A DNA stretch of 64,000 nt from Gemmatimonadales bacterium (GTDB taxonomy: Bacteria > Gemmatimonadota > Gemmatimonadetes > Gemmatimonadales > GWC2-71-9): contig JBOHSD010000014.1 of assembly GCA_050733075.1 (NCBI GenBank), positions 13-64,012 of the forward strand, in the 5' to 3' direction. A program made the position numbers and the translations under genes. Shown one piece after another: positions 1 to 62,047 of the stretch (its first letter is position 1; every line of letters starts with the position of its first letter). Under the pieces are notes generated by a model that saw nothing but the letters and a program-made list of their open reading frames with translations, was not told where the DNA came from and ran no database searches.

Positions 1-50
1 AACCGTAAACGGGGGGGATGGCCCGTTTACCGTTTACCGTTCACAGTTCA
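1..50. repeat. Heptamer-array hairpin element (GTGAACG family), left arm cut by the window edge
   Basis: GTAAACG at 5-11 faces four tandem 7-mers (CCGTTTA CCGTTTA CCGTTCA CAGTTCA) at 23-50. The array ends 7 nt before the ATG at 58. Confidence 0.7.
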
Positions 51-49045: not shown

Positions 49046-50188
49046 TCAGGTCTCCTCTACCATGATTCCCCGTTTGGCCAGCTCAGAGACGTACTGGTCG
49101 AACGGGATCGCCTCATCCGGGGTGTGTACCCCCTTCGCCTTGACCCGGCCGTCCACCTGCATCTGCCCGGTAATGGACAGCGAGTAGCCGGTGGTCCGCA
49201 TCATGGCACTGATGCCGTGCTGGGCATCGTAGTAGTCGATCAGCCGGAAGGTGACCCGATGACGCTGGCCGCCCCTTTGTCCGGTGACCTGAACCTGGAG
49301 GGCGACGAGATCGCGACCCTCGGGCTTGTACAGCTTGGGGTGTACCGCGGCGATGAACAGGTCACGAGGCGCCACCTTCTTCCCCTTGACCTCGATTGGC
49401 GCGTTGGACAGGAGGCCGAGCTCGCGTATGGGGCGCATGATGGCGACGTGACCGGGGTAGCGAAGCGTCTTGTACTCCATTACGTCGATCTTGCCGGCAT
49501 AGGCAAATGGCAGCGTGCTGATGCCGCCGCCGGTGTGGAACGCCTCCAGGGTGCCGACCGGCGCCGGGAACTCCACCGGCTCCACCTCGCTCAGGGCCTC
49601 GACCTGTACCGGCTTGCCACCCCTGAGGACCCAGGAGGGGGTGGTGTAGTAGTCGAGCGCACCCTCGAGGGAATACACGAGCTGATAATTGAGCGGGGGC
49701 TCGGGGCTCTGGGGCAGGCCGCCGACGAAGATCTTCACCCTTTCGGCCCGGTCGACCCGCCGGATTCCCTCGGCGGCCAGAATATTTACCATTCCAGGCG
49801 CCAGGCCGCAGTCGGGAATCACGGATACACCCCGGGCCCATGCCTGCTGGTGCAGCTTCTTCTGCTCCAGCACGATGTCGGTGTTGCCGCCAAGATCGGA
49901 GAAGTGGCAGCCGCACTCGATGGCGGCTCTTGCCATGGCGCCGTTGTAGTAGTACGGGATGGCGCTCATGACCGCGGCCTGACCATCGAACGCCGCGTGC
50001 ACCGCCGCAGAGTCGGTGACGTCCAGTTTCAGGGTGCGTAGGCGCCCCTTCCAGTCTTCCGCCAGAAACCGGGGCAGCTTCTCGGGGCGCAGATCGGCCA
50101 GCGTAACCTGACCAACCGCCGGATTCTGGAGGAGGTCGTAGGCGCAGGCGCACCCCTGGAGTCCGGCACCGAGGACCAGCAGTTTCAT
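49046..50188 (-). CDS. Saccharopine dehydrogenase-family NAD(P) oxidoreductase
   Basis: MKLLVLGAGLQGCACAYDL is a Rossmann motif. A Sacchrp_dh C-terminal-type sequence follows. ATG at 50188. Confidence 0.85.
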   Translation of the reverse strand: MKLLVLGAGLQGCACAYDLLQNPAVGQVTLADLRPEKLPRFLAEDWKGRLRTLKLDVTDSAAVHAAFDGQAAVMSAIPYYYNGAMARAAIECGCHFSDLGGNTDIVLEQKKLHQQAWARGVSVIPDCGLAPGMVNILAAEGIRRVDRAERVKIFVGGLPQSPEPPLNYQLVYSLEGALDYYTTPSWVLRGGKPVQVEALSEVEPVEFPAPVGTLEAFHTGGGISTLPFAYAGKIDVMEYKTLRYPGHVAIMRPIRELGLLSNAPIEVKGKKVAPRDLFIAAVHPKLYKPEGRDLVALQVQVTGQRGGQRHRVTFRLIDYYDAQHGISAMMRTTGYSLSITGQMQVDGRVKAKGVHTPDEAIPFDQYVSELAKRGIMVEET

Positions 50189-50237
50189 TCCTACCCCGTT
50201 GGAAAAGTCCCCGAACATACTCGGGAGAGTGGGAGGG

Positions 50238-50396
50238 GTGAAGGCCGTGAACGGTGAACGGTAAACGGTTAACGGGTACATGATTGCGGGAGAATGGTGA
50301 ACCGGCCCATCCCTTCCCCCCGTTCACCGTTCACCGTTCACCGTTCACCGTTTACCGTTCACCGTTCACCGTTTACCGTTCACCGTTCACCGTTCA
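50238..50396. repeat. Inverted heptamer-array element (GTGAACG family) in the divergent SDH/TetR intergenic region
   Basis: Left arm: GTGAACG GTGAACG GTAAACG GTTAACG (50247-50274), plus GTGAAGG at 50238 and GGTGAACC at 50297. Right arm 50320-50396 is 11 uninterrupted units (9 CCGTTCA, 2 CCGTTTA). Confidence 0.9.
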
Positions 50397-50432
50397 CGCC
50401 CTTCATCTCTCACCTCTTACATTCATCATCAC

Positions 50433-51035
50433 ATGTCGCCCCCTGGCCCTTCCAATCCCCGCCGCAACGGCACCGCCACCCGCCAGCGGCTCCTGCGCGC
50501 GGCGGCGGAGCTCTACACCACCGTGGGTTACCGGGCGACCACTACCCCGGAGCTCGCCGCCCGCGCCGGAGTGGCGGAGGGGACGATATACCGGCACTTC
50601 AAGGGCAAGGAGAGCCTGCTGAACGAGGTCTACCGCGATGCGCAGCAGCGGGGGGCGGAGCTGGTCCGCGAGGTGGACACCTACAAGGCGCTACCACCGC
50701 GTGAGCGATTGCTCGGCGTTGCCAGGCGCCTCGTGGACGAGGCGAAGACCGACCCCGCGAGGATGCGGATGCTGCTGCAGAGCCGGGAGGAGCGTCTTCT
50801 GGACGAGCAGAGCCGGGAAGCAGGACGCGAATTTCAGGAGGCGCTACAGCAGATCGTTGCCGGCGGCAAGGCGGACGGGAAAGTGCGTTCCGGCCCGGCC
50901 GACCTCTGGGCCTCGATCTGGCTGGCGCTGGTAGGGTTTGCGGCAGAGCGGGTGAGCGCAGGTGAGTGGACCCCGGAGCATCCGCAGGTGGCGCTGACGC
51001 TGGAGGCGGCCTGGGATGCGATCTCGGCGAGATGA
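50433..51035 (+). CDS. TetR-family transcriptional regulator
   Basis: RQRLLRAAAELYTTVGYRATTTPELAARAGVAEGTIYRHFKGKESLL. Confidence 0.9.
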   Translation: MSPPGPSNPRRNGTATRQRLLRAAAELYTTVGYRATTTPELAARAGVAEGTIYRHFKGKESLLNEVYRDAQQRGAELVREVDTYKALPPRERLLGVARRLVDEAKTDPARMRMLLQSREERLLDEQSREAGREFQEALQQIVAGGKADGKVRSGPADLWASIWLALVGFAAERVSAGEWTPEHPQVALTLEAAWDAISAR

Positions 51036-61982: not shown

Positions 61983-62047
61983 AGGCAACCTGCTGGTTGC
62001 CTGAAACCTTAAGCTGGAGCCCGGAAATCCGCAACCCTTCGGTTGCG
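61983..62047. promoter_or_regulatory. Two related palindromes (GCAACC-N4-GGTTGC) in the divergent SRPBCC-ArsR / PolDom promoter region
   Basis: AGGCAACC tgct GGTTGCCT (61983-62002) and CGCAACC cttc GGTTGCG (62030-62047). Confidence 0.4.

Follow-up and report, generated by a model that had tools for sequence, protein, structure and literature searches.

A predicted two-layered hairpin of inverted heptamer arrays between divergent candidate promoters in a Gemmatimonadales genome

We analyzed a 64,000-nucleotide (nt) stretch of the draft genome of a Gemmatimonadales bacterium (hereafter the window; GenBank assembly GCA_050733075.1, contig JBOHSD010000014.1, positions 13 to 64,012), and describe here a hairpin element made of inverted tandem heptamer arrays at 50229-50419, within the 244-bp region that separates two divergently oriented genes. 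On the minus strand, a gene of the saccharopine-dehydrogenase family (SDH; 49046..50188, 380 amino acids; Pfam Sacchrp_dh_NADP and Sacchrp_dh_C) begins at ATG 50188, and all SDH orthologs align from residue 1 at this codon. On the plus strand, a 200-amino-acid TetR-family regulator (50433..51035; Pfam TetR_N, E 1e-18, and TetR_C_10) begins at ATG 50433, the most upstream start in its frame. Gene calls, Pfam matches and ortholog starts all bear out a first-pass annotation made from the sequence alone, which had placed the array between the divergent starts 50188 and 50433 and not after a stop codon. The NCBI record calls SDH as a 411-residue protein from 50281, within the repeat arm and 31 codons too early; judging by the ortholog alignment, the longer open reading frame (ORF) up to 50281 is an annotation artefact that reads into the arm. 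Spurious N-terminal extensions such as MYPLTVYRSPFTAF... (window 50189-50281) are created by repeat arrays, and a practical consequence is that such arrays mislead gene callers.

The element comprises two nested pairs of arms around a unique center. Tandem Repeats Finder identifies a G-rich inner arm on the left (50247-50275; period 7, 4.1 copies of GTGAACG, with the units GTGAACG, GTGAACG, GTAAACG and GTTAACG) and a C-rich inner arm on the right (50320-50397; period 7, 11.1 copies of CCGTTCA or CCGTTTA, 94% matches, score 142). These values and our direct reading of the sequence agree with the four left and eleven right units counted in the first-pass annotation, and the array lies well outside chance expectation. 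The 44-nt hairpin center, or loop (50276-50319), contains no ORF, and a blastn-short search found no other significant copy of it in the genome or in the relatives' loci. Outside the inner arms lie two degenerate stretches: a G-rich outer arm (50229-50246; GTGGGAG, GGGTGAA, GG..) that carries a candidate SDH -35 hexamer, TTCACC (minus strand, 50242-50237), and a C-rich outer remnant (50399-50419; CCCTTCA, TCTCTCA, CCTCTTA) of the CCTCTYA family. The short TTCTCAC-like run previously noted after the array is present (TCTCTCACCTCTTAC, 50406-50420) and corresponds to this decayed outer C-rich stretch, whose last unit overlaps the candidate TetR -10 element. The outer G-rich arm starts 9 nt past the candidate SDH -10 element, as do the GTGAGAR arrays of the related loci L006, L032 and L154.

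In predicted folds, the decayed stretches at 50229-50246 and 50399-50419 base-pair with each other. As RNA, the region is predicted to form a long hairpin (-108 kcal/mol, z -7.6), as it is on either strand; as DNA, the predicted fold reaches -55 kcal/mol (z -8.8), and none of 200 shuffled sequences folds equally well. The pairing is asymmetric, with 4 units on the left and 11 on the right in arms at least 44 nt apart. Perfect arms span only 4 units, or ~28 bp, and the 7 extra units are unpaired.

We looked for further copies of the locus in several ways. An NCBI record, probably from the same genome, carries an identical locus, and an independent Logan assembly of SRR27067773 breaks off within the right arm, with the final units identical. 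An exact-protein look-up returned only the identical locus and one contig broken within the array, and a search of metagenome contigs for strain-level variants, by exact-flank scan and TetR protein scan, gave nothing above 48% identity. Across the whole window, Rfam produced zero family matches.

Conserved blocks on both sides of the element point to a pair of promoters. Our ortholog set consists of 64 SDH/TetR regions in the genus, with the window counted (L001); among the 102 other genomes of the genus, 64 have a TetR ortholog. All 64 regions align gap-free on AAAGCCCCGGAAnATA (AnnnTA), which on the SDH strand gives a TAnnnT hexamer followed by CCGGGGCTTT, and 59 of the 64 share a (C/T)TTCAA box, TTGAAG on the SDH strand, ~18 nt beyond AAAGCCCCGGAAnATA. 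Of the 59 loci that could be evaluated upstream of TetR, 52 have a TANNNT hexamer whose end lies 4-12 nt (mostly 5-8) from the start codon, and only 4 have a Shine-Dalgarno-like sequence. The TetR mRNA is probably leaderless or near-leaderless.

In the window, the corresponding candidates are an SDH -10 element, TATGTT (50214..50219, minus strand), chosen by conservation and spacing across orthologs, and a TetR -10 element, TACATT (50418..50423, plus strand), chosen by conservation and by its position 9 nt upstream of the ATG. These -10-like hexamers lie 28 nt to the left of the left arm and 21 nt to the right of the right arm, with candidate -35 positions at the array edges (SDH TTCACC at 50242-50237; TetR at ~50394-50400, on the right arm's last unit). 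From conservation and spacing, we infer two back-to-back promoters with both -10 elements outside the array. The first-pass annotation had required both promoters to lie within or beside the array, and the conserved hexamers favor beside. A sigma-70 promoter scan of 50100-50520 returned no sites at a 9/12-match threshold, which is too strict for these 4/6 hexamers.

Across the 64 orthologous regions, such elements are the exception. Neither heptamer units nor a palindromic insert are found in 54 of them, and all but one of these 54 span 53-121 nt between extrapolated starts. The first-pass annotation had proposed comparing array length at orthologous loci, and had said beforehand that loci lacking any array yet showing the same expression would count against a regulatory role; the sequence half of that outcome is what the 54 array- and insert-free regions present. 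Heptamer units occur in five regions (L001, L004, L006, L032 and L051), and these are exactly the five that lack the (C/T)TTCAA box. In another five, the box is intact and an unrelated palindromic insert lies to its right. Four of these (L005, L008, L031 and L033) have GTCACCCTGAG...CTCAGGGTGAC in common and the fifth, L007, differs (GCGAGTCATTCCGAGCGTAGCGAGGAATCG...); both types are REP-like palindromes at the same spot as the arrays, with the SDH -35 box on one side and the TetR -10 element on the other.

In a wider comparison set of 80 SDH loci, close relatives carry GTGAGAR/CCTCTYA arrays of ~2 to ~20 units that begin ~9 nt past the SDH -10 element, and these arrays persist at SDH even where another gene has replaced TetR. 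Of the 12 loci with arrays, 11 group in a single clade of 30 on the SDH tree (support 98/95), and none of the 41 loci of the other large starred clade bears an array; the distribution requires at least 7 gains or losses. Overall, hairpin elements have repeatedly landed, or been retained, in this spacer.

The two layers of the element have different distributions among relatives. A search for GTRAACG x3 gives 144 matches in the host genome (G000), 1 in G099 and 0 in G016, G008 and G059, the closest TetR-bearing relatives, and CCTCTYA x3 is found in all five of these genomes. Across 103 genomes of the genus, GTRAACG x3 is frequent in G000 (144), G066 (74) and G110 (62) and absent from more than half, including near-complete long-read metagenome-assembled genomes (MAGs). 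The CCTCTYA family occurs at the same place before the TetR -10 element in L004 and L006, and in L051 this place is taken by a short inverted run of the CTCAC type. By these comparisons, the outer layer appears to be an old, decayed CCTCTYA/GTGAGAR hairpin of a kind that relatives share at this site. Since the decayed pair belongs to a family common to relatives, a CCTCTYA-type hairpin would have occupied the site before this lineage diverged. The GTGAACG layer would then have arrived later, as an addition or as a replacement, in this genome alone.

The inner layer belongs to a family that is abundant in the host genome, a 3.67-Mb draft of 65.6% G+C whose relatives here are uncultured Gemmatimonadales MAGs obtained by Nanopore soil projects. 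We identified 289 period-7 arrays of at least 3 units, grouped in 192 clusters. Arrays with at least 5 copies number 90 at period 7, none at periods 5 and 6, and 10 each at periods 8 and 9. Array sizes fall steadily (109, 90 and 44 arrays of 3, 4 and 5 units), with no peak at four, and only 12 of the 289 arrays reach at least 11 units; the cluster described here ranks 17th of 192 by array bases. Unit families include GTGAACG/GTAAACG (~88 arrays), ACTCCCG, AATAGCC, ACCTCTC and others. Contig ends often fall inside arrays (window 23-41, the start of C14; C8 and C14 of G000; L130:1-30; L149; L154). Short-read assembly thus breaks at the arrays, which are probably more numerous than counted.

By genomic context, 128 clusters are tandem, 26 convergent, 29 divergent and 4 intragenic, and 5 lie at contig ends. 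The 29 divergent clusters uphold the earlier view that the family is not solely a post-stop or terminator module. Clusters occupy 128 of 1864 tandem junctions (6.9%), 26 of 418 convergent junctions (6.2%) and 29 of 407 divergent junctions (7.1%), and therefore, counted by junction, divergent sites are not avoided. Array density per kb of intergenic DNA is 0.37 in tandem, 0.27 in convergent and 0.24 in divergent regions. Among the largest clusters, those in divergent regions include ranks 4, 7, 8, 14 and 17.

About 36 clusters are strictly paired and inverted by a strict test, and more are by looser family comparison. Every cluster with arms in both orientations, whatever its unit family, has the G-rich arm on the 5' side and the C-rich arm on the 3' side. 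The centers of 23 GTGAACG-type pairs are mutually unrelated, with no conserved core and only short GGCC(C)ATCCC-like motifs recurring. A miniature inverted-repeat transposable element (MITE) with a conserved body is ruled out by these unrelated centers together with the unique center in the window.

At the same position in relatives, inverted arms are associated with a gene. In L154, 9 nt past the SDH -10 element, a G-rich arm is followed by an ORF (MRDHKSLLAWQEANAVV...LQRAALSVQLNIAEGYA) that matches PF05635 (23S_rRNA_IVP), a family of four-helix-bundle proteins, with an E of 1.6e-7 and 32.0 bits against a gathering cut-off of 33.8 bits; the contig end cuts this ORF. L136 and L137 hold truncated versions of it, starting MRDH(K/R)SLLA, and L132 retains only the last 24 nt of the cassette (ATCACCTTCGCACG.C.TGAGCAC) beside a C-rich arm. 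The respective regions upstream of SDH are L154:1-308, L136:1-338, L137:1-400 and L132:1-400. In the host genome itself, inverted heptamer arms of various unit families enclose 5 of the 9 PF05635 genes (C2:104124-104800, C2:324857-325403, C13:7566-8121, C1:717650-718343 and C12:44729-45488), the last of which has GTGAACG/CCGTTCA arms. In these, the G-rich arm lies ~50-130 nt before the PF05635-matching part and the C-rich arm within ~120 nt after it. According to PMC10053308, PF05635 shares homology with Avd, a protein of diversity-generating retroelements. The copy in the window has the inverted arms with the G-rich arm 5', and no ORF between them. Seen against these genes and remnants, the outer layer in the window is plausibly a gene-less relic of a PF05635 cassette.

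The first-pass annotation had also suggested that the arrays supply operator-like palindromes, which the comparison does not uphold. A TetR operator would be expected to form a short-spaced dyad of ~12-30 bp over a promoter and to be conserved; here each arm is a direct repeat, the arms lie at least 44 nt apart, 54 of 64 loci are free of array and insert, and the array-bearing loci use other units. Candidate dyads are found elsewhere in the genus. Arms of at least 6 bp over the TetR -10 element occur in 13.5% of loci against 4.4% of shuffles, kinship being uncorrected in this comparison, and the dyads CGCAAACTATTTTGCG, GCGCAACAGTTAACTTGCGC, GCATCACCCTACTTTGATGC and TGACGAGGACTATTCTTCGTCA belong to several array-free clades and not to that of the window genome. 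Perfect 5-6-bp dyads straddle the TetR -10 element in L015, L018, L020 and L059 (CGCAAACTATTTTGCG), in L042 and L048 (GCGCAACAGTTAACTTGCGC), in L037, and in L072 and L073, with a sequence that differs clade by clade. These dyads are suggestive of autoregulatory operators in those array-free clades only. Two other candidates were rejected. A CCCGG-N7-CCGGG dyad over the SDH -10 element has a mean arm of 3.73, against 3.82 when its halves are swapped among species, and the single match of CGCAA-N(0-12)-TTGCG in the window, at 62030, is unrelated and no more than chance would give.

A terminator role is likewise not supported: our scan of 50100-50520 found no terminator-like site, and both neighboring genes start here. 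Transcripts from the two promoters are not expected to include the arms, so that roles at the RNA level, such as termination or RNase III processing, would not apply to this copy.

Taking these observations together, we consider it likely that the element is one local, lineage-specific member of the family of inverted tandem-heptamer hairpins spread through this genome, and that it is situated in a promoter spacer, built in two layers, and acts neither as operator nor as terminator, having only passive effects. Such a family would occupy non-coding DNA of any kind, its arms most likely lengthening and shortening by replication slippage and their complementarity probably being maintained by intrastrand template switching. 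At this locus, the element would have widened the distance between the two -10 elements from ~60 nt to ~200 nt, and the ancestral SDH -35 box TTGAAG would have been replaced by the repeat-derived TTCACC. The site would tolerate such repeat-driven changes, and on the most economical reading the repeat would be tolerated, selfish or neutral. Some points weigh against this account: the orientation classes of the clusters depend on a simple, self-trained and crude gene caller; slippage alone explains neither the polarity of the arms nor a strict 7-nt period across unrelated units; and no dyad of at least 5 bp lies near the TetR -10 element in this genome, so that binding of TetR to the array is conceivable.

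A different origin is suggested by the PF05635 genes. The heptamer-armed hairpins could be the termini or relics of an undescribed mobile or self-propagating Avd-like cassette, with the window copy a gene-less, MITE-like internal-deletion derivative onto which a second unit family was overlaid. The arms and ORF of L154, the remnants in L136 and L137 and the 24-nt stub in L132, all at this position, argue for such a descent, as does the bracketing of five of the nine PF05635 genes in the host genome, one of them by the window's own unit family. However, the 44-nt center in the window has no significant similarity to any cassette interior, the centers of solo hairpins are mutually unrelated, and a ratio of ~190 clusters to 9 genes also fits genes landing in pre-existing hairpins. 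A transposase, a target-site duplication and an empty/filled site pair are not among the evidence. We therefore hold this origin only tentatively, as possible but rather doubtful. If true, half of a conserved promoter would have given way to a cassette without the locus falling silent, and the intergenic heptamer repeats of Xanthomonas, Nostoc and Gemmatimonadales, the ORF-bearing 23S rRNA intervening sequences and the stand-alone Avd-like proteins would share one origin.

The remaining explanations give the element an active role. Slippage of the array could alter promoter geometry and so tune or switch expression of SDH, TetR or both, as in a contingency locus. A long simple-sequence repeat does lie inside the control region of both genes, unit number at the site ranges from ~2 to ~20 among species, the SDH -35 position holds repeat-derived sequence, and Haemophilus influenzae offers precedents in hmw1A (PMC8262952; PMC12721329) and, as the part of PMC4692102 that cites van Ham 1993 describes it, in hifA/hifB. 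Yet the neighbors here are metabolic and regulatory and not surface genes, and the same arrays occur at ~190 unrelated sites. Moreover, the outer boundaries of the array appear fixed relative to both -10 elements, so slippage would leave the -35/-10 spacing and the length of the 5' untranslated region (UTR) unchanged and would alter only the distance between the promoters; by the promoter positions proposed above, the repeat lies neither between a -35 and a -10 element nor in a 5' UTR. We regard a contingency locus as unlikely. Under the twin-domain model, negative supercoiling is strongest in the spacer between divergent promoters, and the arms could extrude from DNA underwound by divergent transcription as a cruciform that takes up supercoils and uncouples or modulates the promoters. 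The strong single-strand DNA fold and the divergent setting of several of the largest clusters fit this idea, and the first-pass annotation had called the region cruciform-prone. Extrusion is conceivable, but the perfect arms are only ~28 bp long, and a 44-nt center with 7 unpaired units makes cruciform extrusion kinetically unfavorable. In addition, 54 of 64 orthologous loci function without such an element, and arrays are somewhat less dense per kb in divergent than in tandem regions; a supercoil buffer strikes us as quite improbable. Finally, TetR could bind the heptamer units or the arm pair and repress both promoters, the spacer between tetR and a divergent target being the classical place for an operator and this genome offering no other dyad of at least 5 bp near the TetR -10 element. 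Against this stand the free spacers of the 54 regions in which TetR and its neighbor are conserved, relatives that use different units or keep arrays without TetR, the dispersal of ~88 GTGAACG-type arrays in the genome, the direct-repeat structure and wide separation of the arms, and the dyads that array-free clades have over the TetR -10 element, such as CGCAAACTATTTTGCG and GCGCAACAGTTAACTTGCGC. The array makes a weak candidate for a TetR site; binding within it is very unlikely, and we give hardly any credence to an operator array.

The locus is a natural experiment: one gene pair occurs without an insert (54 species), with heptamer hairpins that vary in unit and length, with unrelated palindromes, or, in some relatives, with arms that enclose a four-helix-bundle gene. 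It indicates that the repeats are neither confined to post-stop positions nor operators, that a conserved -35 box can be overwritten by them and the spacing of two promoters tripled without loss of the genes, and that they turn over faster than species diverge. The relatives also provide a deletion series at one site, from gene to truncated gene to 24-nt stub to arms only, which connects unexplained heptamer repeats with PF05635 cassettes.

Among known systems, PF05635 cassettes have inverted arms of the same families, and relatives hold the gene or its remnants at this very site; unlike them, the window copy has a 44-nt center without an ORF, and we propose descent from a cassette for the outer layer only. 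It also differs from the ORF-bearing intervening sequences of 23S rRNA in lying between the promoters of protein genes and not in rRNA. REP, BIME, REPIN and MITE elements are likewise abundant intergenic hairpin-forming repeats, and five relatives have unrelated REP-like palindromes at this spot; here, however, only the arm unit recurs, the arms vary in whole units, and copies share neither an interior nor a conserved full-length sequence. In H. influenzae, TA repeats lie in the divergent hifA/hifB promoter (van Ham 1993, in the passage of PMC4692102 that cites it) and heptanucleotide repeats lie upstream of hmw1A (PMC8262952; PMC12721329). The present locus resembles these in having a simple repeat in a control region, divergent genes as at hifA/hifB, and a 7-nt unit as at hmw1A. 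There, by contrast, the repeat lies between -35 and -10 or in the 5' UTR and unit number changes expression, whereas here the array appears to leave both -10 elements outside it, and a change in unit number would affect only how far apart the promoters are.

The intergenic heptameric repeats of Xanthomonas (GGGAATC) and Nostoc (GGGGAYT) are those described by Rehm et al. 2015 (PMC4692102). As in those genomes, 7-nt units here form hundreds of dispersed, mostly intergenic arrays of variable copy number, with period 7 over-represented and only 4 of 192 clusters intragenic, and some arrays are paired in inverted orientation and can form stem-loops; their function is unexplained in both. The STRR heptamers of cyanobacteria, reported by Mazel et al. 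1990, are related repeats. The strand rule of Rehm et al., by which the G-rich strand is coding after a stop codon and non-coding before a start codon (PMC4692102), also holds, the C-rich arm preceding each start on its own coding strand. The differences are that GTGAACG and CCTCTYA lack a GGG tract, so that a G-quadruplex rationale is inapplicable; that there is no preference for four units; that many unit families share one genome, with two nested at one site; and that inverted pairing is common here and occasional there. The divergent share, at 15.8% of classifiable intergenic clusters, exceeds the 7-9% in PMC4692102, where the repeats are under-represented between divergent ORFs, although it is based on crude gene calls and corresponds per kb to 0.24 against 0.37 in tandem regions. 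The element is a Gemmatimonadales variant of this known but unexplained bacterial heptamer-repeat phenomenon, to which the present copy adds a comparative series at a promoter site, a two-layer structure and a local link to PF05635.

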